Virus record (IMG/VR): IMGVR_UViG_3300020470_003428
Span: 16,540-80,539 of that record
Source of the DNA: a virus
DNA: 64,000 bases
Strand: one strand, 5' to 3'
Below the pieces are notes generated by a model. It was not told the origin of the DNA, ran no database searches, and saw nothing but the letters and a program-made list of their open reading frames with translations. This document shows, in pieces, positions 17,670 to 64,000 of the stretch (its first letter is position 1; each line of letters begins with the position of its first letter). The position numbers and the translations under genes were made by a program.

Positions 17670-20018
17670 TCAGTTTGGACCAAGCCAGATTCTTTGACTT
17701 TTACCATTTCTTTTGATTCTCTTCGGTTTGTAACCTAATCTTTTTAAGCAGTCAGTTACTGGTGTTGTCATTTGATGTTGTTGAGCAACATTGACATCGA
17801 CCCATGTGAACAGATCTGCAAGGATGACGTAAGATTGGCCTTGATAGTAGCCACTGCTATTGGTCTCTAACGCACGAGTAACCAAGGCGTCAATAGGGTT
17901 ATCTCGTGTGAATGAATCTTGATAGTCAGCAATATAGCTGAGCTCGTAACTGGAAAAGACATGAACAGGATCGTCTAGGTAAGCCTTATATGCTGCAGCC
18001 CATATTGAATCACGATCTTTCTTCAGCCTATCTAAGTCAATAATTTTTAACGCAGGATTCTCTTTCGAAGGTACTTTGCCTTCTACGATGATCGGCATAA
18101 ACCTACGATTTCCTGTTGGATCACATAGGAAGTCTGAGTTATTTGTAGCAGCAGCTAAGACGAAGGCACGAGGATAAGATTTCTCATTCTCATACTTGCG
18201 AGCAGATCTATCGACAGAGACAGAAACTAGGTTCTTTAATTCTTCCGAGTACTTTCGTTTGCAGTAACGTTCAAACTCATCCATGACAACGATGAATCCT
18301 GCATGCAAAGCGTGGGGTTTTTCCTTTAGGTATTCAATCCCCTGCTGCATAGTGACTACCCAAGGGTAGGTACCAGGGTCATCTAATGATGGTGGAGTTA
18401 AGTATTGGAAGAAGGTTGTTTTACCGCAATTTTGGTTGCCGATTAAAATTGGCATCCAGTCATGGCGACATCCCGGAGCTAAAACTCTGGCTACCGCACC
18501 AATCAGGAAACGTTTGATGATAACATCTGCCAGTAAATTTCCGCAAGGCATGACAGGATTTTGCATGTCATCCTTTGGTACACCTAGGATCTCAGAGGCA
18601 ATTCTATCAAAGTAAGTACAAGGACTAGCACTAGCTGCGCATCTTTCTAAGTAGGATTTTACGGGGTGGAATCTATTCTCATACCCAATAACTCCTGCTA
18701 AATCAAAAACTAGGGTTTTAGGAAAGACCTGTCTTTGACCTCTAGAAATATAGACATAAGCTTGAGATATATCGTGTATTTCTCTTGGTTGTTGCTCTGG
18801 ACCATAAACCAACTGTTGGCTCATGCAATTCAATCGCAAGCCGTTGTAATGACTATCAAGTAGATCTTTAATTCGTTCAACTAAGTCCTCGTTATTACTA
18901 TTGTTATTTCCTCTTGAGCGAGGAGTATTCGGAGGTTCTTCATGATCAAAGGTGGCGACTTCAGCCGGTTCATTATTATCATCTGGCTTATCTATAACTG
19001 CTATTTGTGTCCAAGGTTTATTCTCATCAAACAAACCTTGAGCTTGTTCAATAGGTTCTACAATATCTGGTTCACCGAGAAAATCCTCATGGTCATACCC
19101 TGCAAAAGCATCTCCATGGACTCCTAATTTAAAAGATCCTGAGTTACCTTTTAGTTCGGGAGGTAAAGACTGCCTCCAGCCGGGTTGTTGGGTATCGGCA
19201 GCCCAAAAGATGGTTGCCAACGATTTACCACGCCATCCATAGAAGAATTTTTCGCTGGTTTGAGATTTATTTTTTCCTTTTCCGTGGTGTCCTCTAGATG
19301 CCCATTCTGACCAACAGGAGAATAAAGCTTCTCCTCCAGTACTGGCTGCTCTGGTGATACTACAGAATTGGTCTCTATCACCATCGGAAGTAGGATCCAA
19401 CACATGCTCGAGACAATAAGCAGCAAGGTTAATTGAATGTTCATCAACATCGGCTGATTGGGAGTGATAAGTCGTCCGTTGATGTGCTGCGTGTGCTACC
19501 GCATCATCTATGAAAGATTCAGGCAATACTGCTTTCGGTTGCCAAACAGGGTGTTGAGCACGACTATTACCGTAGAAAATCCTGCAACGGTCAGAACAAT
19601 TAGCGTCACCTCCTAAAGATTTGATCAGGAGTGATGTGATTGATTGGTATAGTTCTCCATCGCTAATCCTATGAGGAAGTTGAAATACAACTCTAAAGCG
19701 ATGCTTATCTGCCTTAGGATTATGGCTTGCAGAGGTATACACCCATGCTGCCAAGCTAGATAAGGAATGTTTAGCGAATTGTTCTAATGTTAAACCGTTA
19801 TCAATGTCGACGACGACAAGATCAGCGTGGTCGAAGGCTGCGCTATTCCTGTGGTCGGACACCATCGCTGCAGGAATAAAGGCTCCGCCATGTGAAATAT
19901 GATCCTTTAAATCAAATATCGTACCTGATTTCCTTTGCCAATTCTTACCAAAGGCTGGTGACCATACACTTGGCTTGTCTTTTATTGTGGGATGAATACT
20001 GAATTCAATCTTTCGCAC
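17670..20018 (-). CDS. primase-helicase (AEP-like primase, PriCT-2, VapE/VirE SF3 helicase)
   Basis: VDID and YTSASH primase motifs; GNQNCGKTT Walker A; MDE; ATN...FL.DPTGNRRF. Confidence 0.9.
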   Translation of the reverse strand: MRKIEFSIHPTIKDKPSVWSPAFGKNWQRKSGTIFDLKDHISHGGAFIPAAMVSDHRNSAAFDHADLVVVDIDNGLTLEQFAKHSLSSLAAWVYTSASHNPKADKHRFRVVFQLPHRISDGELYQSITSLLIKSLGGDANCSDRCRIFYGNSRAQHPVWQPKAVLPESFIDDAVAHAAHQRTTYHSQSADVDEHSINLAAYCLEHVLDPTSDGDRDQFCSITRAASTGGEALFSCWSEWASRGHHGKGKNKSQTSEKFFYGWRGKSLATIFWAADTQQPGWRQSLPPELKGNSGSFKLGVHGDAFAGYDHEDFLGEPDIVEPIEQAQGLFDENKPWTQIAVIDKPDDNNEPAEVATFDHEEPPNTPRSRGNNNSNNEDLVERIKDLLDSHYNGLRLNCMSQQLVYGPEQQPREIHDISQAYVYISRGQRQVFPKTLVFDLAGVIGYENRFHPVKSYLERCAASASPCTYFDRIASEILGVPKDDMQNPVMPCGNLLADVIIKRFLIGAVARVLAPGCRHDWMPILIGNQNCGKTTFFQYLTPPSLDDPGTYPWVVTMQQGIEYLKEKPHALHAGFIVVMDEFERYCKRKYSEELKNLVSVSVDRSARKYENEKSYPRAFVLAAATNNSDFLCDPTGNRRFMPIIVEGKVPSKENPALKIIDLDRLKKDRDSIWAAAYKAYLDDPVHVFSSYELSYIADYQDSFTRDNPIDALVTRALETNSSGYYQGQSYVILADLFTWVDVNVAQQHQMTTPVTDCLKRLGYKPKRIKRNGKSQRIWLGPN

Positions 20019-36653: not shown

Positions 36654-36856
36654 TTGACTGAATAGGTGGGTGGGATGAAATGGGTAACGATAGCTTCTAT
36701 GTCTCGAAGACAGAAAACAATAGAGTCTCCTTGTCTGGAGGAGTTGCCTCCGACAAATACATCAGTCCATAGGAAAGCTAACGCTTCTTGCGTAACAGGA
36801 GTAAGGAAAACTTCACTAGCTCCTTTACGTGTTGAGACTAAGAAGTCATGTGTCAT
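36173..36856 (-). CDS. hypothetical protein with long overlapping tail
   Basis: ATGA-coupled to upstream gene; first ~68 codons unique, remainder overlaps 35994..36653. Confidence 0.45.
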   Translation of the reverse strand: MTHDFLVSTRKGASEVFLTPVTQEALAFLWTDVFVGGNSSRQGDSIVFCLRDIEAIVTHFIPPTYSVKWLPPLRKPKHLTSPSTNSQESHQPASNQNLHTQDIGSLGSTTSSEEGTEHLSMQQSRSLHQHEKESLSYSRKESHSAQMELQSKETITQQESNTTVTSASTYSFLATSNKQATRKWKTTLRSFQQTGKKLDLKVTQTTTEQMVSIPLTLLDSWTQTLST

Positions 36857-37515
36857 TCGAATCTAAAAGCTCGACGATTGTGCATCTTAACTCCTTGGAA
36901 TTGAACTCCATGTTTAAGGTGGTCTTTGATGGCTGATTTCTTAATAGAAACAGATACTTCTTTACAATCAAGAGGTATTTCTTCCCAATCGATATTGTCG
37001 TAGTCGATATCAATGACATTAGAAACCATCTTGGACTTCATCTCGAAGCTTGGAAAGCTGTATTTAGTTTCGTTCGGATGTAAGACGCTCATAACATCTA
37101 GGATCCTTTCCTCTATTTGATCAGCCTTGCGTTGAGCTTCCGAAGCTAAAGCATTTAGTCTCTTGACTTCTTGCTTACGTGCTTGCACCAAGGAGAGATA
37201 TTTCTGCCTGAGGTGAAGGATACGATCAGCTTCTTGTTCGAACTGTTCAGACTTACTTAAATACTCCTGAATGCTCTGATATAATTCATCTCTTTCTTCG
37301 TCTGTTTCTACATCTGCAAGTGAATCTATTAAGATCTCAATCGGACTTAAAGATCCTTTGCTTTGAATGTCGAGGTCGAAGGATGAAATCTGGGACTTTA
37401 GTTGGTTGGAGATCCCCTTCGCAGAGGTCACCGGAGTAGAGGGCGAGGCAGTAGTTACCTGCGTCTTCTGTTGTGTCGAAGCTTTCGACCCATTGGAGGT
37501 TGGTTTTGTGGTCAT
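36853..37515 (-). CDS. siphovirus Gp157-family protein
   Basis: Coiled coil (E.KRL.AL) and C-terminal IP.....KK.AIK..LK.G....GV. Confidence 0.7.
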   Translation of the reverse strand: MTTKPTSNGSKASTQQKTQVTTASPSTPVTSAKGISNQLKSQISSFDLDIQSKGSLSPIEILIDSLADVETDEERDELYQSIQEYLSKSEQFEQEADRILHLRQKYLSLVQARKQEVKRLNALASEAQRKADQIEERILDVMSVLHPNETKYSFPSFEMKSKMVSNVIDIDYDNIDWEEIPLDCKEVSVSIKKSAIKDHLKHGVQFQGVKMHNRRAFRFE

Positions 37516-42422: not shown

Positions 42423-42800
42423 TTAATGCCAAACTAAGCCTTCTTTACATATTTCTAGAATCTCAAGGGATCTATCATATGTCAGATCGGCGTTGGCAGA
42501 GAGGAGGAGCCTGAGACAGAGCTCGGGATCTTTGGTGGATCCGATGGACTCATCCTCAGGAATGAGACTGAGATCAAACTTACCCCATCCGTAAGACAGG
42601 AAGTCACGATATTTAGCAATAGGACCACCCTCGACAGCGACATGAAATGCTAAATCAACTTCGTCGATCTCCATTTTCTCGTAAGCGCAGTCCAAGGCAT
42701 TCATAAGGATCTGGTAGTAATCGGCAATCCCAGAACGGACGCCGGCTAACTTCTCAAGATCACTATCTGAACACTTAGCAGGATAAAGACGCGTACCCAT
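42423..42800 (-). CDS. early acidic protein
   Basis: 125-aa ORF, ATG 3 nt after motif. Confidence 0.7.
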   Translation of the reverse strand: MGTRLYPAKCSDSDLEKLAGVRSGIADYYQILMNALDCAYEKMEIDEVDLAFHVAVEGGPIAKYRDFLSYGWGKFDLSLIPEDESIGSTKDPELCLRLLLSANADLTYDRSLEILEICKEGLVWH

Positions 42801-42869
42801 AATGTACCGATGAAAAGGAACAAAAAAACCCCACCTAGCGGCGGGGTAGCGCGCAGTAGTACGGAACTA

Positions 42870-43025
42870 CTACATGAATACAGGAGCTAAAGGATTGAAG
42901 AATCTAGTGACAGACTGACCAACCCAGTACCAACGGATGACAGTGCCTAGGGCTATGCAGATGGCGAGATACCAGCCGGTATGCTCCATTGCAAAGTCAA
43001 CAACGTCATGGAATAAGCGATTCAT
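42870..43025 (-). CDS. early small membrane protein
   Basis: Start reassigned to ATG 43025; one TM helix. Confidence 0.65.
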   Translation of the reverse strand: MNRLFHDVVDFAMEHTGWYLAICIALGTVIRWYWVGQSVTRFFNPLAPVFM

Positions 43026-43090
43026 GGAATGTACTGATGAAAGGGTACAAAAAACCCCCACTTCATAGAAACGAAGCAGGGGATTTAAGG

Positions 43091-43294
43091 TTATGACCAC
43101 TGTCTAACGACTTGTGGATTACCTTGACCGAAGGCTGTCCTCCACTGCTGAAGCTGGTGGAAAGCATCCTTTGGGCCAAGATCAGGGACTAACTTGCCTA
43201 ACCGTCTGCACTTAGCACTCATGATCACACCATGCCTGGAGATGATGGCGAGCTTATTACCTTGTGCAAAATCGTAGCGAGTTTCAGTAAACAT
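43091..43294 (-). CDS. first early gene, hypothetical
   Basis: 67-aa ORF, ATG 6 nt after motif. Confidence 0.65.
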   Translation of the reverse strand: MFTETRYDFAQGNKLAIISRHGVIMSAKCRRLGKLVPDLGPKDAFHQLQQWRTAFGQGNPQVVRQWS

Positions 43295-43389
43295 GAAAAT
43301 GTACCGATGAAAAGTGACACTAACATCGGATTAACATAGTTTTGACATACGTCTACGCTTGGTAGCCATCAAAGGAACAATAGCTACAA

Positions 43390-43767
43390 GCGAATGTTAT
43401 GTGAGAAGAATTGCGTAGCAATTCGAACACAAACATGAGCGACAATAAGGATAGCGAATAGCGAATATTACTGTGATGAATCACGAAGTGATTTACACAT
43501 AATATGAGCGTAATGAGCGTTCAAAGGTTCCCCAGTGATGCGTAAACGCAGCAGCTATGTAGGGTTGTCAAGGGATTTGGCGCACTCGCAAGCGCAAGAG
43601 GGAGGCGTGGGATAAACGCGCTATGCATGCGCATATACGCTGGATAACTGTTGCTAACGCAGAAGACAAAGGGGAACAGGTGAACGCACAAGAGTTGACA
43701 AAGGAACGCGTCCCTCAAGCGAGCGATTGATGCGCTAATTAGGAACTAATTACGCACAATTGCGAGC
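43390..43767 (+). other. structured non-coding region with three GNA-triloop/tandem-GA hairpins and a long rod
   Basis: Hairpins at 43390-43440, 43461-43509, 43719-43767; nested helices 43517-43687. Confidence 0.7.
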
Positions 43768-44086
43768 GCTAATTAACACACACTTAACAGAAACGTTGCG
43801 TCGCTTAACATCAGAGCAACATCGGTGCGCTAGAATCGCCCCTTATTTTTTTGTTTACGCGGTATCGCAACTTGCAGTGGGTGTTTGATGTATAGCGCGG
43901 AGAGCAAAAAATTAGCAATTTCTCCCGCGAGGCTATATAGGGAATAACATCGCTTCATAGTGAAAATTCGCGACGTCAAATTCTGTGAAATTTTTTGTTC
44001 CCTATTTCCCGCGAGGCGCTTACCGGCGAAACCCTAGTAATCAGAGCCGATAGACTTGTAATACGTGGAATGTGTATCTGAGTCGA

Positions 44087-47011
44087 ATGAACGCTTGGGA
44101 ACGGTTAATTAATCTGGATCAAAGCAAGATGCAAGATCCAAAAAATACTTATTTCGGTCAAAAATATCCCGGGACGACGAACGAAAAAAAGAAAACTATT
44201 TTTAATGCCTTGCAAAACGCGGCAGGCTCTTTACCTCAATCGTTATTTCCGCCGATAACCATAAATAAACCTGTTGATAATTACCAAATTCCAACTGTTT
44301 CTAATACTCAATACTCTCCTGCTAAAAAAATAGCTGCAATCGCCACGAGTCCCGGCGAAATGAGGCCTACTGCAAAAGTTGCTTTACCTGTAGGCAAGAT
44401 TGTTGTCCCAGAAATGCAGCGAATTACGCAAAAGAACGCTACAAACCTGAAAGCAACAGGACGTCTTCGCTTAACGACGCCTGCTAAAGGTGATTCTTGG
44501 GATTTATCTGGTTTTGATACGTTAAATAAGCAATATGGCAAACGAAATTACGCTGTTACTCCTATTGGACTAGCTCAGCAACAACAAACTACTAAATGGC
44601 CGGCACCACTTTCTAGTAGAAGGGGCGACAGGACAGTACCAGGAGTAAATCTTGCAATTAATAAACAAAAAACATTACAAAACAGCGAGCAAAAAGGCAA
44701 CGAATTAGGAACAACAGAGAGTAGATTCGGTCGCAAAGTTGTACCGCAGTTTGAAAACTATGAATATAAAGGTGCTGTTACTGATTCCAGGAAAAAACCT
44801 CAAACTTCTTGGTTTAAAAGGAGCAAAGATGATGCCACACCTGGTCGTTGGGACGGCAATCAGTATATAAAAGCTGTTGAAGATACTGTAGAGCGTAAGG
44901 TCTTAACTTCTCCTGCCGGTTCTATCAGCAGTCGGCGAAGTAGAAGTGGTATGCCTGCTCAAGGACCAACATCATTAAATCCAGAAGCGAGAAAAATTCT
45001 AGAAGAATATAGAACTGGAATGCAATATGAAACAGATGTCAGACCAGAAACCAAGGAACAATTAAGAGGTGGAGTAAAAGCCGTTAATCCTGCAACTGGA
45101 GGAGATTGGACTCAAAACCCAGTTAAAGGCAGAAGAATTCCATATCCATTCGAAAATAACCCTAATTACGGCAAAGAGGTTGGCGGAACTAACTATGAAG
45201 TTGGTGTTGACATGCTTTATAAGACCGGTGATCAAACATATGATGTTCGTCGTGTATACGGTACGGATGCTGCAGGAGTAAGAACCAAAGATCCTGACGC
45301 TCGCTTCTTCAACGAGCAACAAGAGGATAAGCGATTGGGAACAGCCGCAACAGAAGCAATGGATGCGACTAAAACGCCTCTTATTAGCGGTAAGACTCTT
45401 GGGGAGATGAAAGAACAAGGCTTAGCAAGATTGGCAACTCCGGCTGACATGACAGCTACAGGTCCTAGTGGAAGACTGAAATACGAAAATAAGAGAGGTA
45501 AATTGAATATCGGTGGGGTAAGAACTGACTTAAAAGGATTCCTAAGAGGCGCAAAAGATCCCGATACAGGTAATTATTCTAAAATCCCTGTTTATCTATA
45601 TCGCGGGGAAAACGAGAAAGATCCTGCAAAAAGACTATATAGACAAGGAGTACCTACTAATAGAGATCTAGACGAAATGAGGAGGATATTGGCTGATCCT
45701 CGTAGAGAAACTAGCGTCAATCAATTAATAACAAATGCGTCAAGAGAAAGAGGTAAACCAGTGGAAAGAGGGTTTACTCCTTTCTTGAACAGAGAAGATG
45801 TGTATGACAAGGTCGGAGGAATTAGAAAGGGTTATGAAAATCCTATAAAATTCCCTCTTCCTCCTAAAGGACCACAAAATCCATACGGTGTAACAGAAGC
45901 TCAGTTAACGAGAGATTACAGCGAAGCTATAAGGATTCTTCAGACACAACATAGAGCAGACAATAAATTCCCGATGACTAGCCAACATTCTTTGGCTGAA
46001 AGTTATAGACGTGTTCTTGCAAGTGCTGCAGCAAGTGGCGCAATGGTTGGTGCTCCTAGTCAGGCGGTTTCAGATTACATGAGATCTTCTAACCTCCAAA
46101 GAGTTGTAGAAGCCGGAGGCCGACAGTTAAGACATGCAATGATCCAAGCGAAAGCTCAAGGTCGGGTATTTAATACAGAGCAATTAATAGCAGCGTCCAA
46201 CGCTATTGGATCAAGGATAGGAGTGAGTGGTAACGCTATTATCAACGCTGCGACTGCAAATGTTGCTATGGGTCCGAACAGAGAAGTCAATCTGTTCCAA
46301 GAGCCTTATGGTTACGATCCACTTTTACCGAAGAATCAGCAAGGGCCAACTCCATTCACTAATAAGAAACAATTAAGAGACAGAGAAGCTTTAGCGGCCT
46401 TACTTTCTCGCGATCAAAATTTATTAGATGATGAAGAAATAGCGTTAAGAGATTCTATTGTTAGCAAGGTAAGAAATAAGCCTTTAGATGAATCTGAAAT
46501 TTATGCATTAAGTTACGAAGACAGAGGAACCAGTGAAGATGGGGTAAAAGGGTACAGAGTGATAGACGATGATGAATACAGGAAAGCAATCGCTGCAAGT
46601 CCTGACCTATATCTAGATGTTGATAATATTGCGAGACGTGCTCCTCAAGCGCCTGTTACTCAGGATAATTTCCTTAGAACTTCCGTTGGTGGTCCAACAG
46701 TCTTGACTACTGGTGACGTCCCTGCTCAAGCCGCCGCACTACGAGCTCGGTACAACGCTGATCCTCGCGTAGCTCTTGGACAAGAAGCTCATAATGATTC
46801 CCGGGTCTTGCAAGCTGGTGTAGATGGTGCTTCACTAAATGCACCTGCTAAACAAACAGCCCCTGTTCCTTACATGGATTACAGAAACGTCGCTGCTGCT
46901 TTAGGTGCTGGCAACGAAGGAAATATATCTGATGAAGCTTTCCTAAGACAGCGGAGAGCCGAAGCTATTATCGCCCAAAGAATTGCTGCCAGAAATAGAA
47001 TGAGAGTATGA
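44087..47011 (+). CDS. large basic hypothetical protein (possible internal virion protein)
   Basis: ~975-aa ORF, first plus-strand gene; TAGACT upstream. Confidence 0.8.
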   Translation: MNAWERLINLDQSKMQDPKNTYFGQKYPGTTNEKKKTIFNALQNAAGSLPQSLFPPITINKPVDNYQIPTVSNTQYSPAKKIAAIATSPGEMRPTAKVALPVGKIVVPEMQRITQKNATNLKATGRLRLTTPAKGDSWDLSGFDTLNKQYGKRNYAVTPIGLAQQQQTTKWPAPLSSRRGDRTVPGVNLAINKQKTLQNSEQKGNELGTTESRFGRKVVPQFENYEYKGAVTDSRKKPQTSWFKRSKDDATPGRWDGNQYIKAVEDTVERKVLTSPAGSISSRRSRSGMPAQGPTSLNPEARKILEEYRTGMQYETDVRPETKEQLRGGVKAVNPATGGDWTQNPVKGRRIPYPFENNPNYGKEVGGTNYEVGVDMLYKTGDQTYDVRRVYGTDAAGVRTKDPDARFFNEQQEDKRLGTAATEAMDATKTPLISGKTLGEMKEQGLARLATPADMTATGPSGRLKYENKRGKLNIGGVRTDLKGFLRGAKDPDTGNYSKIPVYLYRGENEKDPAKRLYRQGVPTNRDLDEMRRILADPRRETSVNQLITNASRERGKPVERGFTPFLNREDVYDKVGGIRKGYENPIKFPLPPKGPQNPYGVTEAQLTRDYSEAIRILQTQHRADNKFPMTSQHSLAESYRRVLASAAASGAMVGAPSQAVSDYMRSSNLQRVVEAGGRQLRHAMIQAKAQGRVFNTEQLIAASNAIGSRIGVSGNAIINAATANVAMGPNREVNLFQEPYGYDPLLPKNQQGPTPFTNKKQLRDREALAALLSRDQNLLDDEEIALRDSIVSKVRNKPLDESEIYALSYEDRGTSEDGVKGYRVIDDDEYRKAIAASPDLYLDVDNIARRAPQAPVTQDNFLRTSVGGPTVLTTGDVPAQAAALRARYNADPRVALGQEAHNDSRVLQAGVDGASLNAPAKQTAPVPYMDYRNVAAALGAGNEGNISDEAFLRQRRAEAIIAQRIAARNRMRV

Positions 47012-47223
47012 AAGAGTATTTAGTTGCCATCACTCCTGAAGACATGAGGAGGCATACTGAACAAGGTTATGCACTGTTGGGAGCTATTACAAATGAAAAG
47101 GGTTTTGACCCAGTTGCTGTAGTAATGTTATCGACATTGATCTTTAATACTCATACATGGATCTTCCACGCATTTGTACTGAAGAACGGAACCGTGCATG
47201 GTATAGAATTAAGAGATGAATAA
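47008..47223 (+). CDS. hypothetical protein
   Basis: 71-aa ORF, ATGA-coupled. Confidence 0.6.
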   Translation: MKEYLVAITPEDMRRHTEQGYALLGAITNEKGFDPVAVVMLSTLIFNTHTWIFHAFVLKNGTVHGIELRDE

Positions 47224-58360: not shown

Positions 58361-58594
58361 ATGAAAAAAGAAGAAGAAAATGCTCGTGTACCTATCCCTA
58401 TTTATGACCTATTAGATGCTTGCTGTGCTTTGCATGGAGGACTAGAACTAGATAAATTTGAAGATAAAAATTATTCCCTAAAACATGCATTGAATTTGTT
58501 CTTTGGTTACATGACCCCAGAAGCAAAGGCTGAATTTAATCAATGGGTGGAGAGAAAAGGATGGAAGAAGAAAGAGAGAATCATCCTGTCTTAA
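58361..58594 (+). CDS. hypothetical protein
   Basis: 77-aa ORF. Confidence 0.6.
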   Translation: MKKEEENARVPIPIYDLLDACCALHGGLELDKFEDKNYSLKHALNLFFGYMTPEAKAEFNQWVERKGWKKKERIILS

Positions 58595-58620
58595 TAGTGA
58601 ATAACACTTAGACTAGCTTT

Positions 58621-63653: not shown

Positions 63654-64000
63654 ATGACTTCTTCTTCTTTAACAAGAAGTGGCAGTGTTTTGAAAGGATG
63701 GGACGAGTTCTGTGAGTGGACTACTTCTACTAGTAATCGTATTTACGTTGGTTGGTTTGGAGTCTTAATGATTCCATGTCTACTTACTGCAGCAACTTGT
63801 TTCATCATTGCTTTCATAGCTGCTCCTCCTGTCGATATTGACGGGATTCGTGAACCAGTAGCAGGTTCATTCTTATATGGAAACAACATCATCTCAGGAG
63901 CCGTTGTACCGTCATCTAACGCAATCGGTCTTCACTTCTACCCAATCTGGGAAGCTGCAACCCTCGACGAATGGCTCTATAACGGAGGACCATATCAACT
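63654..64000 (+). CDS. psbA: photosystem II D1 protein (5' part, runs off window)
   Basis: Own translation ...[14 protein letters not shown]...[17 protein letters not shown]...[10 protein letters not shown]. Confidence 0.97.

Follow-up and report, generated by a model that had tools for sequence, protein, structure and literature searches.

In phage N4, the early and the late genes diverge from the joined genome ends. T7 RNase III sites, put of HK022 and boxB of the lambda nut sites are processing or regulatory stem-loops of phage leader RNAs. Mini-hairpins of the GCGNAGC or CGNAG type are known at the origins of G4, St-1 and alpha3, at ssiA of RSF1010 (primase RepB') and at the promoters of N4, and the RNA counterparts of such mini-hairpins are much less stable (PMC13037366). 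Promoter-early stem-loop (PeSL) cassettes have been described in T4-type phages (Arbiol et al. 2010, PMC2839356). Here we describe three hairpins, A, B and C, that resemble these elements in some respects and depart from them in others.

The window analysed, a stretch of 64 000 nucleotides, corresponds to bases 16540-80539 of an 80.5-kb IMG/VR virus contig with a completeness of 95%. The large terminase is 52% identical to TerL of Synechococcus phage S-EIV1, the nearest cultured phage, and all related contigs originate from marine metagenomes; the phage is an uncultured cyanophage, a marine relative of S-EIV1. S-EIV1-like cyanophages are common across the oceans. S-EIV1 has a similar layout, in which leftward small early genes are followed by a non-coding gap of about 1 kb and then by rightward genes. 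In the window, the leftward (minus-strand) genes begin at 43294 and the rightward block opens with an ORF of 979 aa at 44072/44087. The phage genome encodes a VapE/D5-type primase-helicase of 782 aa (17670-20018), TerL and the likely TerS lie 14 kb from the non-coding hub between the two gene blocks, and a Mu Gam-like DNA-end protection protein (PHROG 253) is encoded at 36853-37515, among the early/middle genes. Since a related assembly (G002) extends 6.2 kb upstream of the start of the present contig (G000:C1:1), the full genome is probably about 86.5 kb long. The ends of two independent assemblies, G000 and G003, lie no more than about 60 nt apart, at window positions 63940-64000, and this break may mark a physical end, a repeat or a variable region.

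Hairpins A, B and C all lie inside the 777-nt non-coding hub that separates the early from the late genes, which places them at the early/late divergence point, as the initial annotation had stated. The phage-type motifs on both sides of the hairpins point outward and the hairpins are located upstream of both. The features of the hub are the following, in window coordinates:

43301-43319, minus strand: the 19-nt early cassette motif in its first copy, just ahead of the ATG (43294) of the first early gene and outside the hairpin family
43320-43338, + strand: left pair of YTAACAT words, spaced 11 nt, directly to the right of the first cassette motif, in both clades
43390-43440, + strand: hairpin A, loop C(GTA)G with its three bases at 43414-43416, with the apex GCGTAGC, an exact GCGNAGC mini-hairpin motif
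43454-43518, + strand: hairpin B (core 43461-43509), loop C(GAA)G with its three bases at 43485-43487
43517-43687, + strand: long-range inverted repeat between B and C, arms 43517-43533 and 43671-43687
43640-43662, no strand assigned: conserved block CTGGATAACTGTTGCTAACGCAG, identical in both clades save for two free NN pattern positions
43719-43767, + strand: hairpin C, layout as in A, loop G(GAA)C with its three bases at 43742-43744
43773-43823, + strand: right group of YTAACA words, starting at 43773, 43784, 43805 and 43816 (spacing 11, 21 and 11 nt)
43843-43856, no strand assigned: T-rich run TTATTTTTTTGTTT, conserved in both clades, T9 in S-EIV1
43874-43893, no strand assigned: conserved block GCAGTGGGTGTTTGATGTAT, with a core that is invariant in both clades

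The three hairpins are present letter for letter as first reported, and A carries an exact GCGNAGC DNA mini-hairpin motif. Each of them is a single long imperfect stem-loop, a composite of about 19-20 bp that combines a GA clamp with a bulge and an internal loop. Hairpin A is built of a GC clamp, tandem G.A pairs, a 5-bp stem, a 1-nt bulge, a 4-bp stem, an internal loop and a 7-bp stem. Hairpin B possesses a second, outer GCGAAT/ATGAGC module with tandem G.A pairs (43454-43459 with 43513-43518), which lengthens its stem across a 1x3 internal loop; the module is doubled on both arms in register, giving a second GA module in the stem. A and B form a 71-nt tandem duplicate, and further 7-mers are duplicated as well. 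A regular-expression search of the 80.5-kb genome for GCGA...GAGC returned four matches, all on the + strand, three of which are A, B and C while the fourth precedes the window.

Folding on both strands with DNA and RNA parameters, which the initial annotation had proposed, yielded strong stem-loops and favoured the + strand. The + strand energies with DNA parameters are -9.9 kcal/mol for A, -7.5 for B and -11.7 for C, with z-scores from -3.6 to -4.5, and none of 200 shuffles equalled A, B or C. Genome-wide, C has the fourth lowest DNA folding energy among 51-nt segments. With RNA parameters, the + strand energies reach -18.3 for A, -19.7 for the extended B and -23.2 for C (z from -4.0 to -5.3); the RNA fold of C uses a competing AGCG/CGCU register at its base. 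Under RNA parameters, the + fold surpasses the - fold in stability in every one of the 14 distinct variants, the margin being 2.1-9.7 kcal/mol; under DNA parameters it does so in 13 of them. Changes fitting the + strand only outnumber those fitting the - strand only by 5 to 1 in the hairpins, according to the author's tally, and by about 8 to 1 when two conserved core helices are added. This preference results from G.T wobbles and from the conserved tandem G.A pairs. The claims of strand specificity and of a preference for the + strand, the template for the leftward early genes, are therefore upheld. Hairpins with a GNA triloop and a stem of at least 6 bp on the + strand number 22 in the whole genome, of which six fall within 43415-44068, overlap leaving five distinct ones. 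The + strand also shows two further, weak hairpins in which a GNA triloop is combined with several G.T pairs, TGTCAAG-GGA-TTTGGCG at 43563-43582 and ATACGTG-GAA-TGTGTAT at 44056-44078, the latter overlapping the start of the 979-aa ORF.

A, B and C are one paralogous family, and their fold is kept by selection and compensatory change. A covariance model built from the B variants alone recovers A (39 bits, E 7e-8) and C (37.5 bits, E 2e-7) over their full length and on the + strand only, and finds no further match in 254 kb (the window and the related loci). In an alignment of 14 distinct variants fitted to the model, 97.3% of the cells are paired, against 22-39% in slid controls. Two-sided changes occur in 12 of the 19 pairs and none of 500 shuffles matches this, a figure that is not a probability, the rows being paralogues and close relatives. 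The shared architecture and the compensatory changes reported initially are borne out by these results.

The GNA loops and the GA pairs are mostly conserved in the 12 related sequences that carry the hairpins; the initial annotation had named a lack of such conservation in relatives as grounds for its refutation. The tandem G.A pairs are retained in all variants, with GA/GA in a Py-GA-Pu context on both arms of every copy. In hairpin A of the divergent sequences L022 and L028, the outer clamp pair C-G, which flanks the conserved G.A pairs, is replaced by T-A, and a G-C pair at the base of the apical stem is replaced by G.T. In their hairpin C, the closing G-C is flipped to C-G and the loop changes from GAA to GTA, G1 and A3 being kept, while two to three further pairs become G.T, the outermost clamp pair included; this outermost change suits the register of the GA clamp and disrupts the competing AGCG/CGCU register of the RNA fold. 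Among the variants of hairpin B, an AC to CA swap merely shifts the bulge. Counter-examples are an A.C mismatch in hairpin C of G003 and L027, T.T and G.A mismatches in hairpin B of L026 and L033, and two exceptional loops, ATA in L026 and one with a deleted base in L023 and L031.

Relatives were found through two conserved words of the hub, which gave five IMG/VR and 16 metagenome loci. The related hubs split into two clades, one formed by the 12 sequences that carry A, B and C, and a hairpin-less sister clade of ten loci with seven distinct sequences. The hub of the sister clade is 126 nt shorter on its left side and lacks A, B and the left arm of the long-range repeat, which is part of the clade-specific insert bearing A and B; at the position of C, a small and poorly conserved hairpin remnant is found. 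The sister clade retains the first early cassette motif, the cassette array, the hub core and the right-hand blocks, and the identity between clades over the common parts of the hub amounts to 72-82%. The first early genes and the first late gene beside the hub are not homologous between the clades. The alignment across related phages displayed covariation and also the absence of A and B from the sister clade. Because A, B and most of C are absent there, the hairpins are accessory and lineage-specific: they supplement a conserved control or origin hub and do not belong to its core, whether they act as DNA or as RNA. One hairpin-less locus, L013 (G001), carries on its reverse strand (4290-4170) a second cluster of (GT)GAGCGAA/AGCGAGC words, without hairpins, in another early intergenic gap.

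The blocks of the hub are better conserved than the neighbouring genes. The CTGGATAACTGTTGCTAACGCAG block is partly recognisable in S-EIV1 as AGATAACTGTTAC, and conservation between the clades also covers the blocks CTGGATAACTGTTGC..ACGCAG and GCAGTGGGTGTTTRATGTAT. The YTAACA(T) words of the hub are found exclusively on the + strand and their positions are kept in both clades; on an alternative reading, the two that start at 43784 and 43805 would make up a sigma70-like promoter, TTAACA-16-TAACAT. The T-run begins 23 nt past the right YTAACA group and is preceded, in the hairpin-bearing clade, by a short GC-rich hairpin at 43826-43844. Helically phased direct repeats on both flanks, together with an AT-rich run and a short GC-rich element, give the hub the appearance of an origin or control region bound by protein; origins and operator arrays are arranged in this manner, and this is a matter of resemblance only. 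No GC-skew switch is observed at the hub. On its + strand, GAGCG is enriched 30-fold and AGCGA 13-fold; the hairpin-less clade shares an enrichment in AGCG words, which S-EIV1 contains as well. The hub of S-EIV1 displays a comparable layout with a 12-nt repeat of its own, and its hairpins have neither GA clamps nor GNA loops. Two other promoter-like sequences were noticed. The first, a sigma70-like TTAACA-17-TACGCT at 43331-43359, is a candidate promoter confined to the hairpin-bearing clade, in which its hexamers are retained and its spacer is variable; it precedes A by about 30 nt. The second, TTGCTA-18-TATACA on the minus strand (43917-43889), would put a leftward start near 43882.

We tentatively favour, with a probability of about 0.4, the reading of A, B and C as + strand single-stranded DNA hairpins, putative auxiliary priming or loading signals in an origin-like hub. 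The hub would unwind either at the initiation of replication or through the negative supercoiling that builds up between divergent transcription units. The exposed + strand would then snap into hairpins stabilised by the C(GNA)G triloops and by the tandem sheared G.A pairs in Py-GA-Pu context. Once folded, these would resist SSB and could operate as auxiliary recognition, priming or helicase-loading signals analogous to the G4-type and RSF1010 ssi signals, the likely partner being the phage's own VapE/D5-type primase-helicase. The + strand bias across the variants, the location of the site between divergent transcription units and the local enrichment of + strand GNA-triloop hairpins are consistent with such a role. 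The GA clamp appears to be under selection, as suggested by the duplicated module of B and by the C-G to T-A change in hairpin A of L022 and L028, and G1 and A3 were kept when the apex of C was remodelled in the same two sequences. A strand-specific stable hairpin with a mini-hairpin apex, a feature of ssi-type signals, is found in A (GCGTAGC) and in B (C(GAA)G).

The comparison with the G4-type and RSF1010 systems extends further. There as here, stable hairpins of 40-50 nt form on one strand with a GCGNAGC or CGNAG apex (PMC13037366). Three clustered hairpins recall G4 ori(c), hairpins next to direct repeats and an AT-rich stretch recall RSF1010 oriV, and a phage-encoded primase-helicase is present. 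Unlike these systems, the cyanophage has a dsDNA genome with no known ssDNA stage, its hairpins carry a tandem-GA clamp at the base of the stem, and the trio lies on a single strand, where RSF1010 uses the paired ssiA and ssiB. Other observations argue against a function in single-stranded DNA. The sister clade lacks A, B and most of C, which makes the hairpins dispensable for replication, and the hub has no GC-skew switch. Stems with bulges and internal loops extrude badly from duplex DNA. The G-C to G.T to A-T substitutions and the far larger RNA folding energies are RNA-like, and the candidate promoter upstream of A and, weakly, RNA-library contigs over C point in the same direction.

A close rival, which we regard as possible and place second, places the stem-loops in a non-coding RNA of the + strand, which would either lead the late operon or stand alone with a length of about 500 nt. 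Such an RNA would start near 43366, from the candidate host-type promoter TTAACA-17-TACGCT with its conserved hexamers, and run through A, B, the long-range helix and C to the T-run or to about 43885; its stem-loops, each some 20 bp long and interrupted by a bulge and an internal loop, would serve in protein binding, in antitermination or in processing of the RNase III type. With RNA parameters the + strand folds stably (-17 to -23 kcal/mol, z from -4 to -5.3), and the substitutions favouring it are G.U-type, both in the hairpins and in the two conserved core helices. A weak GC hairpin followed by a U-run lies at 43826-43856, and its stem changes in L022 are + compatible, as far as pairing can be judged by eye. 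The clade-specific insert adds an arm that pairs about 150 nt away, in the manner of RNA expansion segments. Small contigs from three RNA libraries, of three different studies, span 43588-43885, covering C and leaving A and B uncovered, and two of them terminate at 43874 and 43885, at the conserved GCAGTGGGTGT block. These contigs (Logan) are strandless and carry no transcript ends, and they come from runs that were picked for containing the 43588-43885 stretch; their clustering may be a matter of chance, to which the author gives a low but appreciable probability.

Against an RNA, no Rfam family was found at a useful score: Rfam 15 gave no match at gathering score over the window, and 43200-44150 gave only chance-level snoRNA hits with E of at least 1. 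The consensus fold of the whole hub (-20.95 on the + strand versus -18.35 on the - strand) was called no better on the + strand, and more two-sided changes are seen on the - strand; the minimum free energy of a 521-nt region is equal on both. In the sister clade, the candidate promoter does not keep its position. C(GNA)G triloops typify stable DNA hairpins and not RNA hairpins (PMC13037366). A large structured RNA was considered and is not claimed, the possible closing helix ACGUCUAC/GUGGGUGU consisting of G.U pairs only and the consensus folds leaving the strands unseparated. As to known leader elements, the hairpins share with T7 RNase III sites a length of about two helical turns and an internal loop, with HK022 put the tandem arrangement of A and B shortly downstream of a candidate promoter, and with lambda nut boxB a sheared G.A pair in the loop. 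They differ from all three by their triloops, which replace GNRA-like penta- or tetraloops, by the lack of sequence or Rfam similarity and by their position upstream of the phage-type late motif.

It is improbable that the hairpins have no dedicated single-strand function and are either by-products of duplication and template switching or duplex sites or cruciforms for a dimeric DNA-binding protein. Template switching in inverted repeats can mimic compensatory change; the C-apex change of L022 could be a conversion from A, the tandem duplication of A and B and the duplicated 7-mers point the same way, and the hairpins are missing from a sister clade whose hub is otherwise intact. However, the non-complementary GA/GA breaks the dyad symmetry in all hairpins and variants, and + compatible changes exceed - compatible ones by the 5 to 1 given above. 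The stem sequences of A, B and C differ while the fold is kept, unlike what a single dimeric reader of duplex DNA would call for. The GA/GA contexts and the duplication of the GA module of B in register on both arms fit a folded single strand and do not fit a dimeric reader of a duplex palindrome.

The neighbouring early array bears on the next alternative. A 19-nt linear motif without any hairpin precedes 12 of the 12 early genes. GTACYGATGAAAAGGTACA occurs in 12 copies between 31198 and 43319, all on the + strand; most copies come after the intrinsic terminator of the preceding minus-strand gene, and each stops a few bases short of the next ATG, with no Shine-Dalgarno sequence. The early array looks like PeSL-like terminator-promoter cassettes around small genes. 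It shares with PeSL the association of a terminator and a promoter-like motif with small variable genes and the differences between relatives (PMC2839356). Hairpins A, B and C, unlike PeSL, have no promoter and no U-run and do not flank ORFs.

The initial annotation had suggested that the hairpins could load a virion RNA polymerase and form one system with the cassette motif. N4-type single-stranded DNA hairpin promoters, read by a virion-delivered RNA polymerase for early transcription, would account for hairpins on the template strand of the early genes and upstream of them, for 3-nt loops of the G-N-A type that are comparable to the GGA and GAA loops of N4 promoters (PMC13037366), and for early and late genes that diverge from the hub as they do from the N4 joined ends. 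This is nevertheless very unlikely. Every early gene has its own linear motif, and the sister clade keeps the same 19-nt array without A, B and most of C, which argues against a single system of hairpins and cassettes. The composite stems are bulged and about 20 bp long versus 5-7 bp in N4, they stand at no fixed short distance from any start, and they lie 95-475 nt from the first early ATG, hence at least 95 nt away. No ORF exceeds 979 aa and none matches PF00940, although control genomes likewise gave no match, and a DxDGD scan for two-barrel RNA polymerases returned only three incidental matches. Even less likely is a structure at or near the physical genome ends, telomere-like or packaging-related, which had also been put forward: the assemblies are compatible with terminal repeats and the S-EIV1 record is listed as circular, but the hub is internal in all four long contigs (113.5, 86.5, 80.5 and 63.9 kb), the recurrent break at which two assemblies stop is 20 kb off and TerL with the likely TerS is 14 kb off.

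Several other candidates were rejected. The hairpins resemble REP/REPIN-RAYT and IS200/IS605 hairpins as imperfect, strand-specific palindromes with the short 5' word GCGA that are present or absent among close relatives. Unlike these mobile elements, they amount to three copies at a single locus, are found in no other IMG/VR context and are accompanied by no Y1 transposase, PF01797 being absent from the phage genome (the control was positive in 10 of 14 genomes). The pattern GCGAATRTTA-N25-35-WAAYATGAGC matched in IMG/VR, beyond the same locus, four unrelated stretches that do not fold. Mini-ORFs of 14 and 8 codons within the hairpins are not conserved among A, B and C. A CRP- or NtcA-like reading of TGTG...CACA has the wrong spacing, a K-turn would require a 3-nt bulge that is missing beside the GA pairs, and an integron attC-like reading finds neither an integrase nor R/L boxes.

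On the late side, ATAGKGAATAACA occurs exactly twice, in the hub at 43937-43949, about 135 nt before the 979-aa ORF, and at 58594-58606, 15 nt before the TerL start. It is followed in the hub by CGCTTCATAGTGAAAA (43951-43966), which contains TTCAT(C)AG of the early cassette motif in rightward orientation. The element is a candidate late-promoter word. The first late gene (44087-47011) encodes the 979-aa protein, the largest ORF, which belongs to no Pfam or PHROG family. Its homologues (35-99% identity) are metagenome-derived proteins only; it was undetected in the hairpin-less clade and in S-EIV1, and tblastn against phages found none. Used as a query for related loci, the protein or its 16-row alignment recovered only the near-identical G003, an Atlas search gave no usable hit, and the AF2 model is unusable (pLDDT 31). 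A megablast of 42800-47100 against the phage collection gave no match.

No other non-coding DNA near the early/late switch is conserved as well as the hub, and the hairpin trio provides a precise strand-specific handle on it, as folded single-stranded DNA signals or as a new structured RNA. Initiation by the logic of G4 and RSF1010 is, to our knowledge, so far undescribed in tailed cyanophages. The more specific proposal that a dsDNA cyanophage possesses ssi hairpins inside its origin, combining the mini-hairpin with tandem GA pairs, read by its own primase-helicase and gained or lost between clades, is a long shot. The presence of the hairpins in one clade and their absence from its sister constitute a natural control for hairpin function.
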